Of a stretch of DNA of 64,000 bases, positions 977 to 37,818 are shown one piece after another. The position numbers and the translations under genes are program-made. A model generated the notes under the pieces. The model ran no database searches and was not told where the DNA came from. It saw only the letters and a list, made by a program, of their open reading frames with translations. The stretch's first letter is position 1; the number at the start of each line of letters is the position of its first letter. The stretch covers positions 896,001-960,000 of the forward strand of contig CAVQEQ010000001.1 in assembly GCA_963711565.1 (NCBI GenBank). The letters are read 5' to 3'. The stretch is from an uncultured delta proteobacterium (GTDB lineage Bacteria; Desulfobacterota; Binatia; Binatales; Binataceae).

Positions 977-2596
977 GTGCCGAAGAGGGAACCGCAATCG
1001 TGGGAAATGGTGCTGAAGCGCAATTCGGTCGAGCGCCTTAAGCACGACCTGTTTCCCACCGAGCTGACCGGTCAATGGAACCGGCTGGTGGAGACCTCGT
1101 ACGAAAAACTCCCCGAGGAAGACATCGTGCGGCTCCAGTGGTTCGGCATGTACCACGACAAGCCGAAGATCGGCACGTTCATGATGCGGGTCAAAATTCC
1201 CAGCGGCATCCTGAGTGCCGAGGGGCTCCGCGCAATCGGTGAAATCTCCGAGACCTACGGCCGCGACCAGGGCGAGTTGACGACGCGCCAGAATATCCAG
1301 CTGCATTACATCACGCTCGACAAGTTTCCCGAGATTCTCGACAAGCTGAAGGGCTGTGGGCTGACGACGATGGGCGGATGCGGCAACGTCGTGCGCAACA
1401 TCACGGGATGCCCGGTCGCCGGCGTCGATCCCGACGAAGTTTTCGACGTGACGCCGCTGATTGCCGAGACTGCGGGATTCTTCTACGGCAATCGCGAGTA
1501 CTCCGACCTGCCGCGCAAGCACAAGATCTCGATCGCCGCATGCAATCATCAGTGCAACGCGCCCGAAATCAACTGCGTCTCGCTGATCGCGATGCTGAAA
1601 GAGGGACGCGAGGGCTTTGCGGTGCGCGTCGGCGGCGGCCAGTCCTCGACGCCGCGCCTGTCGCGACACCTCGGCGTGTTCATCGCGCGCGATCAGGCGA
1701 TGCCGGTGATGCGCGCCATCATCGACGTGTGGCAGGGCACCACCGAGTACCGGATGTCGCGCGTCAAGGCGCGGCTCAAGTTCATGATCGACGACTACGG
1801 CCCCGAGGAATTTCGCAAGCTGGTCGAAGCCAAGCTCGGTTTCGCGCTCGATAATCTCGCCGAGATGCCGCTCCCCGAGACCGAGAGCGATCACATGGGC
1901 ATCCACGGGCAGAAGCAGCCGGGGCTCAACTACGTCGGCTTCCCGGTTTACCTCGGCTTGATGAGCGGGCGGCAGATGCGCGAGATTGCGGCGCTGACGG
2001 CGTCGTTCGGCGGTGATATCCGCCTCACGCGCCGCCAGAATTTCATCATCACCGGTATTCCTACTGCGCAGCTCGACGATGTGATCGCGCAGGTCGGCGC
2101 GATCGGTTTTCCGCTCGAAGCGAACGGGCTTTACGCGTCGTCGATCGGATGCATCGGCGATCCGCATTGCAACTACGCTGTCACTCCCACCAAGACCAAG
2201 CTCGCGACGATCATCGAGCGGCTGGTGAACGAGTTCGGCGATCAGGTCGGCGGCCTCAAGCTGAATCTCGACGGATGCCCGCACGCATGCGCGCAGCATT
2301 GGACCGGCGACATCGGGCTGCAGGGCACGACCAGCCGCGGGCAGGCGGGCGAGCCGATCGAGTCGTTCGACATCATCCTGCGCGGCGGTCTGGGCAAGGA
2401 CGCGGCGATAGGCAAGCCGATAGTTCGCCGAGTCCCGTCGCCGCTGGTTGAGGATTACGTGTCGCGGCTGTTCGGGACTTACCTCGAACGGCGCGACGCC
2501 AACGAAACGTTCTCCCACTTTTGCGTGCGCACGTCCGACGCCGAACTGATTTCGGTCGCAAGTGGAAACGCAAGCGGCGCCGACGCCGCCGCATGA
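977..2596 (+). CDS. Nitrite/sulfite reductase (siroheme, ferredoxin-dependent Sir type)
   Basis: TTRQNIQLH, LPRKHKI, CIGDPHC and GCPHACAQHWTGDIG motifs; adjacent to cysH; GGAGA RBS before GTG. Confidence 0.92.
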   Translation: MPKREPQSWEMVLKRNSVERLKHDLFPTELTGQWNRLVETSYEKLPEEDIVRLQWFGMYHDKPKIGTFMMRVKIPSGILSAEGLRAIGEISETYGRDQGELTTRQNIQLHYITLDKFPEILDKLKGCGLTTMGGCGNVVRNITGCPVAGVDPDEVFDVTPLIAETAGFFYGNREYSDLPRKHKISIAACNHQCNAPEINCVSLIAMLKEGREGFAVRVGGGQSSTPRLSRHLGVFIARDQAMPVMRAIIDVWQGTTEYRMSRVKARLKFMIDDYGPEEFRKLVEAKLGFALDNLAEMPLPETESDHMGIHGQKQPGLNYVGFPVYLGLMSGRQMREIAALTASFGGDIRLTRRQNFIITGIPTAQLDDVIAQVGAIGFPLEANGLYASSIGCIGDPHCNYAVTPTKTKLATIIERLVNEFGDQVGGLKLNLDGCPHACAQHWTGDIGLQGTTSRGQAGEPIESFDIILRGGLGKDAAIGKPIVRRVPSPLVEDYVSRLFGTYLERRDANETFSHFCVRTSDAELISVASGNASGADAAA

Positions 2597-2782: not shown

Positions 2783-3619
2783 ATGGCGGCAGGAACCCAA
2801 TTCAACGAAGAAGTCGAAGCGCCCGAACTGAGTCTTATCATGGACGAACTCGAGGCGGGTGAAGCCGCCGTCGAGCTCGACGACAAGGAACCGCAGGAAG
2901 TCCTGGCATGGGCTATCGAAAGGTTCGGCAAGGAATTGGCGATTTGCTGCAGCTTCCAGGCTGATGGCTGTGCTCTTATCGACATGGCGCACAAGATCGA
3001 TCCTCGCATCCGTGTGTTCACGATCGACACGGGCCGGATGCCGCAGGAGACCTATGACGTAATCGATAAGTATCGCACGCGCTACGGCATCAACGTCGAA
3101 GTGTTCATGCCCGACACCGCGGTCCTACAGCAGATGGTGACCAAGCACGGCAACAATCTGTTCTACAACAACGTCAACTTGCGGCTGCTATGCTGCCAGG
3201 TGCGCAAGGTGCTGCCGCTGCGCCGAGCGTTGATGAACTACAGCGCATGGGTGACGGGACTTCGTCGCGATCAGTGGGCGACGCGCTCGAATATCCGCAA
3301 AATCGAAATCGATCACGACCACGGCGGTATCGTGAAGCTGGCTCCTTTAGCCGACTGGCAGGATGAAGAAGTCTGGAACTACATCCGCGCCAACAACGTC
3401 CCTTACAACGCGCTCTACGACAAGGGCTACAAGTCGATAGGATGCGCCCCATGCACGCGCGCCGTAGCCGAGGGCCAGGACGCTCGCGCGGGCCGATGGT
3501 GGTGGGAAACGGGCGCGCCCAAGGAATGCGGGATGCATTGCGCGATCGAAACCGGTGGCTTCGAGCACGAGCTGGCATCACTCCTAGGCCAGAACGAAGG
3601 CAGCCGTCCTAAGTCTTAG
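2783..3619 (+). CDS. cysH: APS/PAPS reductase
   Basis: IDTG, CCQVRKV, WVTGLRRDQ, GYKSIGCAPCT, RAGRW and KECGMH motifs (Fe-S-type APS reductase). Confidence 0.95.
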   Translation: MAAGTQFNEEVEAPELSLIMDELEAGEAAVELDDKEPQEVLAWAIERFGKELAICCSFQADGCALIDMAHKIDPRIRVFTIDTGRMPQETYDVIDKYRTRYGINVEVFMPDTAVLQQMVTKHGNNLFYNNVNLRLLCCQVRKVLPLRRALMNYSAWVTGLRRDQWATRSNIRKIEIDHDHGGIVKLAPLADWQDEEVWNYIRANNVPYNALYDKGYKSIGCAPCTRAVAEGQDARAGRWWWETGAPKECGMHCAIETGGFEHELASLLGQNEGSRPKS

Positions 3620-3628
3620 GGATAGACG

Positions 3629-4123
3629 ATGGCGAGCGACGACCAGCCCGGCGCGGGCGAATCGATAACGCTCGACACTCTCCAGCGCAACGTCCTAGTC
3701 CCCCAAATCCAGGCGTTCCTCGACGCGACGAATGATCCTCAAGCCCGCGAGACTTATCTAAGTCTCAAGTCCGCGGTCGAGTCACTCGAAATACCATCAG
3801 TCTTACAACTAAGACTAGGCGCGATCGTAGAAGTAGCACTAACCAGCGGCCGAGTAAGACGCCTATTCGGCCCCGCCGCAGAGCTATCGCTAAACGCCCT
3901 CTTCCTAAAAACCCCGCGCGGCCGCGAAGTAGCTCAATCACTGGCCGAATTGAACAAAGCCCTGGCAACCCTCAAAGGCCAAACAGTCGAGCAGATAACA
4001 TCGTCGCAAAGAAGCCCCGGGGCCTACTCCCTTACCCTCAAAACCAATAACTGCCAAATCGTAATCCGCTTCGAACAAGCCGGGGTCAGAGTAGAAAGCC
4101 TGGAAGTAGATCTAGATAGGTAG
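3629..4123 (+). CDS. Hypothetical protein, likely co-transcribed with cysH
   Basis: 164-aa ORF starting 9 nt after the cysH stop; strongly aberrant A-ending codon use. Confidence 0.75.
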   Translation: MASDDQPGAGESITLDTLQRNVLVPQIQAFLDATNDPQARETYLSLKSAVESLEIPSVLQLRLGAIVEVALTSGRVRRLFGPAAELSLNALFLKTPRGREVAQSLAELNKALATLKGQTVEQITSSQRSPGAYSLTLKTNNCQIVIRFEQAGVRVESLEVDLDR

Positions 4124-4160
4124 CGCGGGGTTGCGGGCGCCGGACCGCTAGAGCGTCCGT

Positions 4161-4249
4161 CGAGATTCTTCGCTACAGCAGCTTTCGCTCAGAATGACAC
4201 AAGAGAGTCCAACGCCTTTCCGTCATCCTGAGCTATGCGAAGGATCTCG
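4161..4249. repeat. Inverted pair of GTCATCCTGAGC...GCGAAGGATCTC-type REP elements
   Basis: Reverse complement of 4161-4198 (GTCATTCTGAGC...GCGAAGAATCTCG) matches 4222-4249 (GTCATCCTGAGCTATGCGAAGGATCTCG). Confidence 0.75.
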
Positions 4250-4278
4250 CGCGAAGCGCGTCCTATCGACAACGCTCG

Positions 4279-4590
4279 CTACAGTTCTAGTCGCTCGGGC
4301 GGAACGCCCTCAGCTTTCGCCTTTTTGGACCGCTTTAGTTGAACCAATAACAGGTAGAGTACTACGGGCGCTCCGCAATAGAAGGAGATATCGACCATCC
4401 AGTCGTTATAAAAGTACGATTCCGTAGCAGTTAGATATACTAAACTTCCCTGAATTCGGACCGGATAAATTGCGCCCAGAGCACGGTCTGGTGTCCTCGG
4501 CGCTGTCGCTGGGAAGTACAACCCTAAGCACGCTTGACTTACCGCCACGATAACAGAGATGGAAAGCAGAAGTCGCCTAAGGATCTGCAT
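4279..4590 (-). CDS. Small low-GC membrane protein (orphan)
   Basis: MQILRRLLLSISVIVAVSQACLGLYF...; two hydrophobic segments; AT-richer than the flanks. Confidence 0.55.
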   Translation of the reverse strand: MQILRRLLLSISVIVAVSQACLGLYFPATAPRTPDRALGAIYPVRIQGSLVYLTATESYFYNDWMVDISFYCGAPVVLYLLLVQLKRSKKAKAEGVPPERLEL

Positions 4591-4644
4591 GGCGGTAAGT
4601 CTGTCGGGCGAACTACCGGTCTCTATTTTCATCCAAGGCTCTCC

Positions 4645-5943
4645 CTACGGCTCCAACCGCTCCATCATCCGCGGGAACGGCACCGTCTCCCTGATGTGAT
4701 GTATCCCGCAGAGCCAGCCGGTCATGCGCTCGATGCCCATGCCGAAGCCGGCGTGCGGGACTGAGCCGTAGCGGCGCAGATCGAGGTACCATTCGAAGGG
4801 AGCGAGCGGCAACCTGTGCGACGTAATCTTGGTGCGCAGGGTTTCGTAGTCGTCCTCGCGCTGTCCGCCGCCGATTATTTCGCCGTGACCTTCGGGCGCG
4901 AGCATATCGACGCATAGCGCAACGTCGGGACGCGCGGGGTCCTGCTTCATGTAGAACGCCTTGCACGCTGTCGGGTAGCGATGCACCATCACGGGCCGAT
5001 CGAATTCCTCCGACAGCGCGGTTTCCTCGTCGCCGCCGAAGTCGTCGCCCCAGTTGACGGCGACGCCTTTCTTTTTCAGCCGTTCGATCGCTTCGTCATA
5101 GCTGATGCGTGGATATGGAAGCTGCGCCGCCGACTGTAGCTTGGTCGTATCGCGATCGAGGGCTTTCAGCTCGGCGCCGCGCCGTTCGAGCACGCGGCCT
5201 ACGATGTACGACACGAACTGCTCAGCCAGTTCCATATCGCCGGCTAGGTCGCAGTACGCGACCTCCGGCTCGACCATCCAGAATTCCGTCAGATGACGCC
5301 GCGTTTTGGATTTCTCCGCGCGAAATGTCGGGCCGAAGCAGTACACCTTGCCGAACGCGAGCGCGCCCGCCTCCGCGTAGAGCTGTCCGCTCTGCGTCAG
5401 GTACGCCTTGCGCTCGCCGAAGTAGTCGAGCTCGAACAGGTTGGTGGTGCCCTCGCACGAAGTCGGAGTCAGAATCGGCGCGTCGAACAGGACGAAGCCG
5501 CGCTCGTGGAAAAAATCGCGGCATGCCGAGGCCACCTCGCTGCGCACCCGCAGTATCGCGTGCTGGCGCGACGACCGAATCCACAGATGACGGTTGTCGA
5601 GCAGGAACGCGACGCCATGCTCCTTGTTTGTGATCGGATAATCGGTCGCCGGCGACACGATCTCGAGCGACTTCATCGTCAATTCGAATCCCCCCGGCGC
5701 GCGCTTGTCCTCGCGCACGATGCCGGTCACTTCGAGCGACGTTTCCTGGCCCATATGATCGGCCGCCGCGAAACGCTCCGCGCCGAGATCGGCGAGCGAC
5801 GCCACGCATTGGCATACACCGGTGCCGTCGCGCACCTGCAGGAAATGGATCTTGCCGCTCGACCGCTTGCCCGCGAGCCAGCCGTTGAGCGTGACCTCGT
5901 TTCCGACGTGATGCGACAGTTCTTCGATATAAACTCGCGCCAT
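4645..5943 (-). CDS. asnS: Asparagine--tRNA ligase
   Basis: OB-fold N-terminus; [53 protein letters not shown]. Confidence 0.96.
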
Positions 5944-12903: not shown

Positions 12904-13428
12904 TTGCGCCTCATCCTGCTGTTCGCGGTTTTCGTCGTGGTGGGATTGGCATTCGAGTCCGCGGGCGCGCGCATCGTTACCTTCCGCTCGCTGATTCCCA
13001 ACCTGATCATCATACTCGCCGTCGATCTCGGCCTGCGCCATCACGGCGTGATGCCCGCAATCCTGGCATTCGCGATGGGCTATGCGACCGACGCGCTCGC
13101 CGGTTCGCATCCGGGCCTCAACGCCTTCATGACGACGATGGTCTTCCTCGTGAGCTACGAGATTTCAACGCGCCTGATGGTGGCGAACGCATTCGTCGGC
13201 GCGACGGTGGTCTTCTTCGGCGTGATCGCGACGGCACTCGGCACCATCGCAATCGCCAACGGCTTCAACGCCCTCTCCGACACCGGTCCCCTGATGCCCG
13301 CCCTGACCCTTCAAGCCTTCATCACCGCCCTAATCGCCCCCTTCATCTTCTCGATGCTGGCCCTGAGCAAACGTCTGACAGGATTGCCTGACGGATCAGG
13401 CCGAGACGCCCGAGGACGCGACCGGTGA
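12904..13428 (+). CDS. mreD: Rod shape-determining protein MreD
   Basis: Hydrophobic, PNL motif, GYATDALAG; between mreC and mrdA. Confidence 0.85.
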   Translation: MRLILLFAVFVVVGLAFESAGARIVTFRSLIPNLIIILAVDLGLRHHGVMPAILAFAMGYATDALAGSHPGLNAFMTTMVFLVSYEISTRLMVANAFVGATVVFFGVIATALGTIAIANGFNALSDTGPLMPALTLQAFITALIAPFIFSMLALSKRLTGLPDGSGRDARGRDR

Positions 13429-16917: not shown

Positions 16918-18036
16918 ATGAAAGTCCCAGATCAGGGTACAATGGCCTTCGCTTCGAACGACGGACGTGCCGGTAGAATTATCTCGACTTCGTATCGTCA
17001 CGCGTTCACCGAGTACATTCGCGAGAACGCGCTCTCACCCCTCCTTTTCCACGGTGGTGCTCTCGCGGTTCTCAGGGAGCTTCCGGATCGCTCTGTGGAT
17101 TGCAGCATGACCTCCCCGCCCTATTGGGGCAAACGCGAATACGAGAATGGCGGTATTGGATTAGAGGGCGACTACCGCCACTTCGTTAAAAGCCTCGCTG
17201 CAATCTTCTTCGAATTGAAACGTGTGCTCAAAGATGAAGGCTCGTTCTGGCTGAATATAGGAGACACCTACGAGAACAAGGGACTTGTCGGTGTGCCCTG
17301 GCGCGTAGCCTTCGAGCTTACCGACCATCAAGGGTGGACACTCCGGAACAGCGTTGTCTGGAACAAAGTCAAAAGTGGAATGGATAACACCAAGGATCGA
17401 TTGGGCAATGTCCACGAGCTTATTTTTCACTTCGTCAAACAGACAAAAGGTTATTACTACGACGCGGACGCCATACGCTCGAAGCCGCGTGAAGCGAGAG
17501 TTGTCAATGGCTCGGTGATTTCTGCGACTGGCGTTTCAGGCGTCCGCTATAAGCGCCAGATCGAGTTGTCCACGGACCTCACTGCAAAACAGAAAACGGA
17601 CGCCTTCAGAGAACTTGACCGCACACTTGCAGATGTTGGTTCGGGCAGGATTTCGGATTTCAGAATGATCATTCGCGCCCAACAACGAGCTACGCATTCA
17701 GACAGTGAGAAAGTTTCCGGTCGCGCGAGGGAACTTCGTGACAAAGGGTTCTATTTTCTCCGCTACCATCCGGGCGGCAGCAAGCCCGCCGATGTGTGGG
17801 ACATCATCCCGGAGGACACGCAAAAAAGAGAAGCTCACTTCGCTCCGTATCCTGTCAACCTCTGTCGAATCCCGATCCTTGCCACGTGCCCAAAAGGAGG
17901 GCTCATCCTCGATCCGTTCTGCGGAATCGGAACGACGTTGCTAGCCGCGCGCAACCTTGGCCGTAAATCCGTCGGAATCGACATTTCGAGTCAGTATCTC
18001 GAACTGGCCAAGGAAAGGTGTGCCGGGCTTCTATGA
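16918..18036 (+). CDS. Site-specific DNA methyltransferase, N4/N6 beta class (likely m4C)
   Basis: Motif IV TSPPYW precedes motif I LDPFCGIGTT; HFAPYP; lower GC. Confidence 0.92.
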   Translation: MKVPDQGTMAFASNDGRAGRIISTSYRHAFTEYIRENALSPLLFHGGALAVLRELPDRSVDCSMTSPPYWGKREYENGGIGLEGDYRHFVKSLAAIFFELKRVLKDEGSFWLNIGDTYENKGLVGVPWRVAFELTDHQGWTLRNSVVWNKVKSGMDNTKDRLGNVHELIFHFVKQTKGYYYDADAIRSKPREARVVNGSVISATGVSGVRYKRQIELSTDLTAKQKTDAFRELDRTLADVGSGRISDFRMIIRAQQRATHSDSEKVSGRARELRDKGFYFLRYHPGGSKPADVWDIIPEDTQKREAHFAPYPVNLCRIPILATCPKGGLILDPFCGIGTTLLAARNLGRKSVGIDISSQYLELAKERCAGLL

Positions 18037-18884
18037 GCAGAGTCGTTGAGTTGTTTGGGCACTCTTCGAGTAAGTCGCGTCAGAATTGGAAGACGATCAT
18101 CGGACAGCAGCAATGCCCTTTCCTTGGTAAGCGCTGTTACAAAGTCCGAAAGAGCGACTCGGGCACTTCCATCGGTTCGTGTACTGTTCTATATGGACGC
18201 CCGCCCGGTGCCATCATCATTTGCCCGACACGTCTAACCGAACGCCGGCAGATTTTCATAGACTGTCTCCACTTGCTCACGACCCATGAACCAGGCAACG
18301 AGCTGCACATTGTCTCCGAAGTTTCTGTCCCCGGCGGCAACGTCAACTATTTTCTCGTGTCCGCAAGGGAACGGCGCGTTAGGGATTTCGTCGGCATCGA
18401 GCTTCAGACTCTCGATACTACGGGCACGATCTGGCCGGAGCGACAACGGCTCTTAAAGGAACTAGGGGTTAGACGAGGCGACAAAGCCGAAAAATTGGAT
18501 AAAACCTACGGCATGAACTGGAAGATGACGGCGAAAACCACTCTTGTCCAGATGCACCACAAAATTCGGACCTTCGAACACGTGAACAAAAAACTGGTCC
18601 TCGTGACGCAAGATAAATTGCTGGAATACATGACGAAGGAGTTTAACTTCGGTCACTTGACCAATCCTCCCGCCGTTGGTGACTCCATGCACTTCCACGC
18701 CTACAGGATGGCCAAATTGACAGACCGGTCCTATAGGCTCACGCTCCAGTCGCGTCTAAGTACCGACGCTGCTGGAATCTCAAAGTGTCTTGGACTACAA
18801 GCCGAGGCGCGCATCGAACTCGAAGAAATCATCGAGGCTCTTCAAGCCAAGATTTCCGCGGCTACATTGTTTACCCCGATGTGA
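18033..18884 (+). CDS. NotI-family restriction endonuclease (possibly inactive)
   Basis: Fe-binding CPF..C.K...GSC...CP.R and IELQTLDTTG motifs; ATGA overlap with the MTase stop. Confidence 0.82.
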   Translation: MSRVVELFGHSSSKSRQNWKTIIGQQQCPFLGKRCYKVRKSDSGTSIGSCTVLYGRPPGAIIICPTRLTERRQIFIDCLHLLTTHEPGNELHIVSEVSVPGGNVNYFLVSARERRVRDFVGIELQTLDTTGTIWPERQRLLKELGVRRGDKAEKLDKTYGMNWKMTAKTTLVQMHHKIRTFEHVNKKLVLVTQDKLLEYMTKEFNFGHLTNPPAVGDSMHFHAYRMAKLTDRSYRLTLQSRLSTDAAGISKCLGLQAEARIELEEIIEALQAKISAATLFTPM

Positions 18885-37389: not shown

Positions 37390-37818
37390 GTGGACGCGCG
37401 GCTCGAACAAGCAATCAACCTTCTGCTCGAATCCGAGCGCGCCGGCGTGCTCGCACTCGACAAACTCATCGCCAACGTCAAGCAAGCCGAGCTGAAACAG
37501 TTCCTGTCCGGCTCGCGCGCGATGGAACAGCGCAACGCCGAGGAACTCGAGGCCCTGATTCGCGACAATGGCGGCAAACCGTCCACTGGCGTCGGTCCCT
37601 TCGCCCGCAAAGTCGCCGCGCTCGAGTCGATTCGCGATCGCCTGAACCTGCTGTCGCGCGGCCAGGAATGGGCCGCGCGCAAAACCGAAGTAGCACTCGC
37701 ACTCGCCCCCGCTGACGGTCCCATCCACGACTATCTGACCGCGATGGCGAATCGGCATCGCGCCGAAGTGGAATGGGGCCGCGCCGAAGTAATCCGCCTC
37801 ACCTCTCTGTCATCCTGA
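37390..37818 (+). CDS. Ferritin-like hypothetical protein (DUF6306-like)
   Basis: LLESERAG, LLSRGQEW, H...E motif. Confidence 0.7.
   Translation: MDARLEQAINLLLESERAGVLALDKLIANVKQAELKQFLSGSRAMEQRNAEELEALIRDNGGKPSTGVGPFARKVAALESIRDRLNLLSRGQEWAARKTEVALALAPADGPIHDYLTAMANRHRAEVEWGRAEVIRLTSLSS

Follow-up and report, generated by a model that had tools for sequence, protein, structure and literature searches.

The last gene of the sir-cysH operon in this uncultured bacterium, a conserved 164-aa reading frame (3629..4123, plus strand), carries an excess of A-ending codons, here called a halo. Codon counts and ortholog matches support a halo that is local, strand-polar and synonymous, with purifying selection acting on the protein. 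Strand asymmetry itself is already known, as the accessible part of PMC10030826 documents; the halo is real and recurrent, and either mutation or selection may be its cause. Our best explanation, to which we assign a probability of about 0.4, is that the halo is the mutation footprint of repeated local single-strand exposure during the swapping of accessory DNA behind the stop codon.

The halo and its genomic setting

In the window, by which we mean the whole 64,000-nt stretch analyzed (C1:896001-960000 of genome G000), the locus contains in order a Rrf2 regulator, a sulfite/nitrite reductase used as a control gene (NIR_SIR domain match; 977..2596, plus strand), cysH (PAPS reductase by domain match; 2783..3619, plus strand), the 164-aa ORF, a 521-nt junction and the convergent asnS (class II tRNA synthetase by domain match; 4645..5943, minus strand). 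The junction runs from the stop of the 164-aa ORF to that of asnS (4124..4644) and holds a REP pair and a 117-aa ORF (4279..4632, minus strand), an AT-richer accessory frame that we regard as cargo, which has no Pfam match and is missing from a near-identical strain. Genes were called with our own dicodon model (4558 calls), and gene sets are accordingly approximate. The product of the 164-aa gene has no Pfam or NCBIfam match. Its family is widespread (286 clusters at E<=0.001, with members of ∼150-165 aa), and in two relatives a C-terminal piece of PAPS reductase is fused ahead of the homologue. The protein model (pLDDT 95) is helical with four strands, and a fold search with it gave no clear match (best Z 5.6). 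The protein is likely a sulfate-assimilation accessory protein whose gene is translationally close to cysH. Elsewhere in the window, a ∼155-nt MITE-like repeat lies between sir and cysH (2617-2770; 8 elements in the genome, absent from some strains), and at 16918-18884 an N6/N4 DNA methylase with foreign codon usage stands beside a weak NotI-like endonuclease match, the two forming a probable restriction-modification pair.

Among the 24 Leu codons of the 164-aa gene there are 10 CTA, 8 CTC, 3 CTG and one each of TTA, TTG and CTT, and Val is encoded by 7 GTA, 6 GTC and no GTG. These are exactly the hand counts that an earlier, sequence-only reading of this DNA had given, and the frame is intact, as it had stated. 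The 165 third positions comprise A55 C67 G31 T12. Against an amino-acid-matched genome null, third-position A is strongly raised (55 vs 19.4 expected, z +9.2) and G depleted (29 vs 64.0, z −6.3), with C (67 vs 60.9, z +1.1) and T (12 vs 18.7, z −1.7) near expectation. Codons 2-40 are normal (A z +0.6); the whole A excess (z +10) is carried by codons 41-164 (3749..4120, plus strand), through the synonymous codons CTA, GTA, ATA, AGA, CAA, AAA and GAA. The gene ranks third of 4343 by fourfold A minus T, and it contains the strongest A-only synonymous window both among 4291 genes and among 4183 genes. A plateau extends from codon ∼55 to 160, highest at ∼55-100 and sharply bounded at ∼44-55; the A share of Leu CTN and Val codons is 0.02-0.09 before codon 41 and 0.77-0.84 at codons 56-85. 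Regional fourfold G-C at the locus is ∼ +0.02, i.e. about zero skew.

Several other sources of such a signal were rejected. The earlier claim that this is not a foreign AT-rich gene is borne out, T3 not being raised and syntenic orthologs being found across the genus. An assembly artefact is rejected by the recovery of 43 A-rich copies from separate assemblies, and head-on replication or replication strand skew by the zero regional skew and by a tail gradient that occurs in both leading-like and lagging-like genes. Across the whole genome, silent-site GC skew is patchy, in blocks of 20-200 kb, and shows no two-replichore pattern, which suggests heavy rearrangement. The tRNAs Leu-TAG, Val-TAC and Arg-TCT are all present, so missing tRNAs do not explain the codon choice. 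Nor does the creation of TpA as such: the ORF shows no rise in T preceding A, and 5' TpA halos were looked for without success.

Other parts of the sequence-only description had to be redrawn. The tail of cysH, where the drift had been said to begin, shows no significant excess of A in this genome (A z +0.8 over the last 45 codons). The last 20 codons of asnS are indeed C-poor (z −2.4) and G-rich (z +4.4) on their own strand, but they are not part of the halo: this G-richness is old, because A-poor relatives are equally G-rich there (G 0.63, C 0.28). Far from being a further case of a G-poor plus strand, the asnS tail of A-rich relatives gains A on its own strand, as a mirror of the ORF. Of the proposed sites of recurrence, the mreD tail (13309..13428, plus strand; A z +3.7) and the tail of a DUF6306 gene before a REP (37681..37818, plus strand; A z +2.6, G z −3.5) do show the signature, but weakly and as sites chosen post hoc; no GDH gene, named as another such site, was identified among the proteins scanned.

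Direction of change and distribution among relatives

The 164-aa ORF was matched in 19 of 24 same-genus genomes, mostly at 77-90% amino acid identity, and is syntenic wherever flanking sequence was examined; the relatives with this gene belong to Ca. Binatus or Binataceae. Genome and metagenome scans provided 100 loci, of which 84 were distinct and 83 had enough sites. Across these 83 loci fourfold A in codons 41-164 spans 0.03 to 0.49; in the tests on them the groups are defined by the A feature itself and kin are not independent. Comparison of A-rich with A-poor orthologs shows which codons moved: CTA rises from 0.09 to 0.46, GTA from 0.12 to 0.59, ATA from 0.14 to 0.40 and AGA from 0.04 to 0.25, GCG falls from 0.64 to 0.25 and ACG from 0.55 to 0.20, and GGC and ACC are kept or gained. 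The net change is thus a shift from G,T to A,C, strongest after T. The drift had been described as G->A only. Plus-strand G->A is strong, but CTC and GTC have also become CTA and GTA, and CGN has become AGA.

For polarized changes, parsimony over 11 genomes gives rates per 100 of 7.1 for G>A (2.3 in neighbours), 3.7 for C>A (1.4) and 2.9 for C>T (2.6). The process is ongoing, because gains of A in the clade about equal losses (53 vs 51). Likelihood on the local tree (26 loci, intervals from 14 bootstrap replicates) gives G>A of 3.25 (2.7-4.1) vs 0.81 (0.58-1.08) in the control, confirming at ∼4x the polarized plus-strand excess that had been predicted. In the same analysis C>A (0.54 vs 0.22) and C>T (1.25 vs 0.75) have overlapping intervals, A loss is about unchanged (2.5 vs 3.1-3.4, with wide intervals) and G>T is 4x lower in the halo (0.19 vs 0.78). 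Damage alone does not predict the last result, which counts against the footprint reading.

These figures bear on a reading in which selection on RNA, not mutation, maintains the halo: A sites would leave the sense RNA unstructured and make the antisense U-rich, as a Rho loading or decay zone at the operon end, or GC-favouring selection would be locally relaxed. The sense strand folds half as strongly (−17.3 vs −32.6 kcal/mol per 90 nt, against −27.1 vs −33.1 for the antisense; 10 vs 14 sequences), some sites are nearly fixed for A (GTA 38/40 at codon 69), and the reduction of G->T fits as well. On the flank tree (30 loci) a selection-type model with a free rate scale beat a gain-only model at Leu/Val sites (lnL −708.6 vs −720.9) and at NCN sites (−685.1 vs −696.3); these fits converged poorly, but the comparison weakens the footprint reading. 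Furthermore, rho is present in 17 of 19 genomes, and Rho-driven strand composition has been shown in B. subtilis (PMC13323073, accessible part). Against selection, the absolute loss of A is not clearly lower, non-silent G->A is modestly raised (36/153 changes vs 35/212 in the control), and depletion of A with gain of T at 5' heads beside variable junctions or REPs is not predicted. Coding-strand A+G is nearly constant (0.54 vs 0.52), so this is not the purine bias described in the accessible text of PMC13323073. UC dimers are lost on the sense strand. We consider selection on RNA an unlikely cause overall.

The halo depends on lineage. The 11 A-rich genomes form one clade (support 96) in an 11-gene tree. 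In a larger, midpoint-rooted tree the A-poor clade falls within A-rich lineages, so that either gain or loss of the halo is compatible with the trees. Loss in the A-poor clade is plausible in view of the counts of tail halos: 28 of 2725 gene ends (∼1%) in the present genome (G000), where gene interiors have 2 of 1807, 5 of 190 in the outgroup G006 and 0 of 460 in G014 (samples of 400 and 800 kb). There is no general clade-wide shift at gene ends among 332 G000-G014 orthologs. Loss of Rho or of ComEC as a clade switch was rejected, both being present in both groups. UDG-family matches number one each in the A-poor-clade genomes G002, G005, G008 and G014 (3.4-3.7 Mb) and two or three in the other 15, a single lineage event that may be relevant to the missing halos; the second UDG-like gene scores below the hypoxanthine-glycosylase cut-off.

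A similar tail signature is found at an ftsX-like gene, an hlyD-like gene and two genes that we take from their sequences to be pgi and leuS. Fourfold A in the tails of pgi, leuS, ftsX and hlyD is 0.24, 0.21, 0.22 and 0.15 in the A-rich clade vs 0.11, 0.07, 0.09 and 0.07 in others (18-19 relatives each), part of this contrast being ascertainment, as the four were chosen on G000 values. In 35 of 45 A-rich-clade copies of these genes the first 120 nt of post-stop DNA are common to no other genome. In the hlyD-like gene of G019 the last ∼30 bases recur past a repeat-bearing insert, as if the insert had replaced the 3' end.

Repeats and nuclease genes beside the halo

The REP pair beyond the 164-aa ORF consists of a TGTC-tagged, CGTC-type element (4160..4199, minus strand) and a CGTC-tagged element (4221..4249, plus strand), and the pair folds as one long hairpin (z −2.3). 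Such REPs are multi-copy and dimeric in this genome, with a terminal CGTC/TGTC tag, and 55 of 81 core matches are intergenic. The sequence-only reading had proposed the REP as the source of the mutations. In that model a REP-dedicated nuclease, for which small GIY-YIG proteins would be the candidates by sequence, nicks the hairpin, and strand displacement then mutates one strand.

Some observations agree with such a role. In the A-rich group, A is higher at the 23 loci with a repeat (0.382) than at the 19 without one (0.306; p 0.0006, with kin not independent). The expected genome-wide correlation with repeat proximity exists in this genome but is weak (halos at 11/439 ends beside a repeat vs 10/1185 without, OR 3.0, p 0.013), and REP-marked junctions show mirrored shifts of +0.023 at 3' ends and −0.021 at 5' ends (p∼0.005). 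Small stand-alone GIY-YIG genes occur at 27 loci in 14 of 19 genomes, behind different core genes (one locus is counted twice among the 27, in two pieces), and the same REP lies within 250-300 nt of them at 22 of the 27, on both sides at 15. Examples in this genome are C1:78228-78584 and C1:417530-417901; several of these genes have internal stops. In the A-rich clade the neighbours of these REP-GIY-YIG cassettes show a weak mirror (A 0.109 and T 0.036 in 3'-facing neighbours, A 0.050 and T 0.084 in 5'-facing ones). A repeat since lost could also leave an inherited halo behind.

The repeat is nevertheless neither necessary nor sufficient. With a narrow REP motif set, a REP was found within 300 nt at 22 of 63 loci, and A did not differ (0.269 vs 0.262, p 0.69). 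A repeat library was then built de novo from 2621 intergenic regions of the genome (618 elements) and applied to 66 orthologous loci. Of these, 23 of the 42 A-rich loci, 9 of the 17 in the A-poor clade and 1 of the 7 in the outgroup have a repeat. Dependence on the REP is contradicted by the remaining 19 of 42 A-rich loci, where orthologs without a repeat show the same codon pattern, and the A-poor clade has the repeat without any effect (A4 0.093 vs 0.089), so that a REP is not enough for a halo. The tails of pgi, leuS, ftsX and hlyD show no repeat effect (0.215 vs 0.202, p 0.71), at 18 of the 29 halo genes of the genome no detected repeat family has a member within 400 nt, and all 11 testable families give the same small shift, ∼0.02 genome-wide vs 0.23 at the 164-aa gene. 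The predicted decay of G->A with distance from the REP gives way to a plateau whose peak lies ∼220-330 nt inside the gene and whose edge is unmoved by gap length. Small GIY-YIG genes are also present in 3 of 4 A-poor-clade genomes. We therefore judge a REP-dedicated nuclease improbable as the cause; as an amplifier it is possible.

The proposed search for nucleases beside the same REP succeeded for GIY-YIG, a predicted nuclease, but not for RAYT, a gene of this type being found in only 4 of 19 genomes. In this genome the RAYT (NF047646) lies directly after rho (C1:341180-341790), flanked by a different repeat family (46 elements), in an apparent REPtron; rho itself has no halo. The junction's own REP is not the family that flanks this RAYT, and no REPtron was thus found for it. 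From their sequences and positions, the small GIY-YIG proteins are candidate mobilisers for the CGTC REPs.

The variable junction, candidate causes and known systems

The junction behind the 164-aa ORF is a hypervariable insertion hotspot. Its ancestral length is 11-23 nt; across the 83 loci it ranges from 11 to 3265 nt, with differing cargo. The asymmetry is mirrored about it, because the asnS tail of A-rich relatives gains A on its own strand (0.14-0.20 vs 0.07 over the last ∼60 codons and 0.20 vs 0.07 over the last 20); this is weak in the present genome. The strand with its 5' end at the junction is accordingly the one that gains T, and intergenic DNA shows no skew. Third-position divergence between close pairs is 0.11 far away and rises to 0.31 and 0.26 beside the junction, on both sides. 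One strain, in run X5, has 78 differences and 5 gaps over 1124 nt at 3056-4184 and lacks 4203-4644, and its flanks differ by 3/749, 7/352, 1/711 and 0/591, with 9/1053 further out. We infer from this one strain a recombination tract that ends at the junction (3056..4184). Four-gamete incompatibility is high everywhere, and at the locus it is suggestive at most.

From these features we derive the following mechanism. Accessory DNA would be repeatedly exchanged at a gene-end hotspot just past the stop codon. The strand exposed would be the one whose 5' end points at the junction, whether it invades or is displaced in a homology-anchored exchange or is opened by D-loop or nick extension. It would suffer C->T and some G->T, read on the coding strand as G->A and C->A, and selection on the protein would leave mainly the silent changes. 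In this view the cargo would include REPs and REP-GIY-YIG cassettes as one kind among others; they would mark such sites and may amplify them, without being required as a trigger. Homology-anchored exchange gives the right sign and would account for halos at tandem genes, for the mirrored shift at 5' ends and for the rise in divergence. By our reasoning resection of a double-strand break would leave the plus strand unpaired to the left of the junction and add T there, the wrong sign; it was rejected. A heteroduplex bias of NucS/EndoMS was also rejected (no NucS found in G000, which is 94.9% complete; MutS present), as was sense transcription-associated mutagenesis, since the coding strand gains A, not T.

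Genome-wide tests support this only in part. Against G007, flanks are unalignable at 108 of 397 3' ends and 37 of 418 5' ends; new DNA starts right past stop codons three times more often than ahead of starts. For tandem genes in this comparison, a variable 3' flank goes with A-T of +0.035 (p 0.005) and a variable 5' flank with −0.051 (p 0.001), again a mirror. The effect was not replicated against G014 or G006 (A-T p 0.18-0.98), the mirror at 5' ends falls short of significance on pooling, and no shift is seen at divergent 5' ends whose flanks vary (n=13). Full halos are found at 3 of 108 variable and 4 of 270 conserved junctions (p 0.41), and convergent genes with conserved junctions have the same mild A>T (+0.027). 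The lack of replication, the full-halo test and the conserved convergent ends all weaken the footprint reading. It is further weakened by the A-poor clade, which lacks halos at the ORF and leuS although the junctions vary there too, and by the position of the halo peak (codons 56-85) relative to the divergence peak (codons 101-164).

Convergent ends also bring in untranslated antisense transcription, by convergent read-through or from cargo promoters, which would expose the minus strand to C->T and G->T, possibly via R-loops. Genome-wide, A rises over the last ∼120 codons and most strongly at convergent ends (A-T +0.022 vs +0.006, p 5e-11), conserved junctions included; an ancestral junction of 11-23 nt is too short to hold a terminator, the bounded plateau is what a transcript ending at a fixed point would leave, and C->T on the single-stranded non-template strand is established (PMC10030826, accessible part). 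Yet tandem genes, hlyD among them, have halos too, 5 loci keep theirs where no asnS was seen downstream, crude proxies reveal no link to the codon-optimality of the partner or to predicted terminators, the plateau edge stays in place as the gap length changes, and the clade difference is left without a reason. On balance we regard antisense transcription as rather doubtful.

The footprint reading is favoured by the variable junctions, the mirrored signs, the divergence peak, the X5 tract, the G->A rate and the presence of a ComEC-type gene in 19 of 19 genomes. More broadly and more tentatively, bacteria that import DNA at gene-end hotspots may carry a polar mutator. With every exchange, some hundreds of bases in the adjoining core gene would be rewritten from a single strand that is damaged or displaced, and REP-flanked GIY-YIG nucleases may be what opens it; halos would then record the site, direction and frequency of DNA acquisition in a lineage. 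Should the footprint reading hold, codon composition by itself would reveal where the insertion hotspots of a single uncultured genome lie and what their polarity is, and would help to trace how accessory genes enter the chromosome; estimates of codon usage, dS and horizontal transfer would then be biased for core genes, pgi and leuS among them. If they are selected RNA features, silent sites over ∼120 codons would hold a terminator or decay signal. We found no description of sub-kilobase, mirror-polar, lineage-dependent halos at core-gene ends in the open-access literature searched.

Diversity-generating retroelements change A. The changes in the halo go to A and include C->A, which would set it apart from their action and probably from deaminase hypermutation with one fixed motif. 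Strand asymmetry from bacterial replication and transcription makes the leading or non-template strand G/T-rich (PMC10030826). The halo resembles it in that one strand loses G,T relative to A,C, as from single-strand C->T. It differs from what the accessible part of that source describes in being ∼0.4 kb long, at particular gene ends, mirror-polar and lineage-dependent, with regional skew of about zero and a sign opposite to that expected of the sense transcript. Rho-driven purine bias (PMC13323073) is likewise a synonymous composition that yields a U-rich antisense, and rho is present here, but in the available text that bias is genome-wide and involves A+G, whereas the change here is local and removes G without altering total purine. 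The Pol I footprint at the ColE1 origin (PMC3167613) offers a polar, roughly kilobase mutation gradient from a strand-displacement start. As far as the accessible text goes, that gradient belongs to an engineered error-prone polymerase on a plasmid, and no origin is shown at our locus.

CGTC REPs share with ours the CGTC/TGTC tag, the palindromic, intergenic and dimeric form and the lack of a flanked tyrosine transposase; the published families CGTC-1 to -4 have an 8-9 bp stem and a 4-5 nt loop, and no transposase has been reported for them (Di Nocera et al. 2013, PMC3733652). Ours differ in flanking small GIY-YIG genes, the accessible part of that paper containing neither the term GIY nor a mutation bias in flanking DNA, and no paper joining the two was found in the literature searched. 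The pairing thus provides a candidate mobiliser for a class of REP that was, in that text, reported without one. Homology-facilitated illegitimate recombination and small variable segments have been described (PMC2884548), and they resemble the present case in that variable DNA lies beside a homologous anchor in a core gene; here, too, there are a competence gene and, in one strain, a tract that ends at the junction. The difference is that the accessible text of that source describes no strand-polar base change in the anchor, and it is this link, from homology-facilitated illegitimate recombination to polar mutation, that we infer here.
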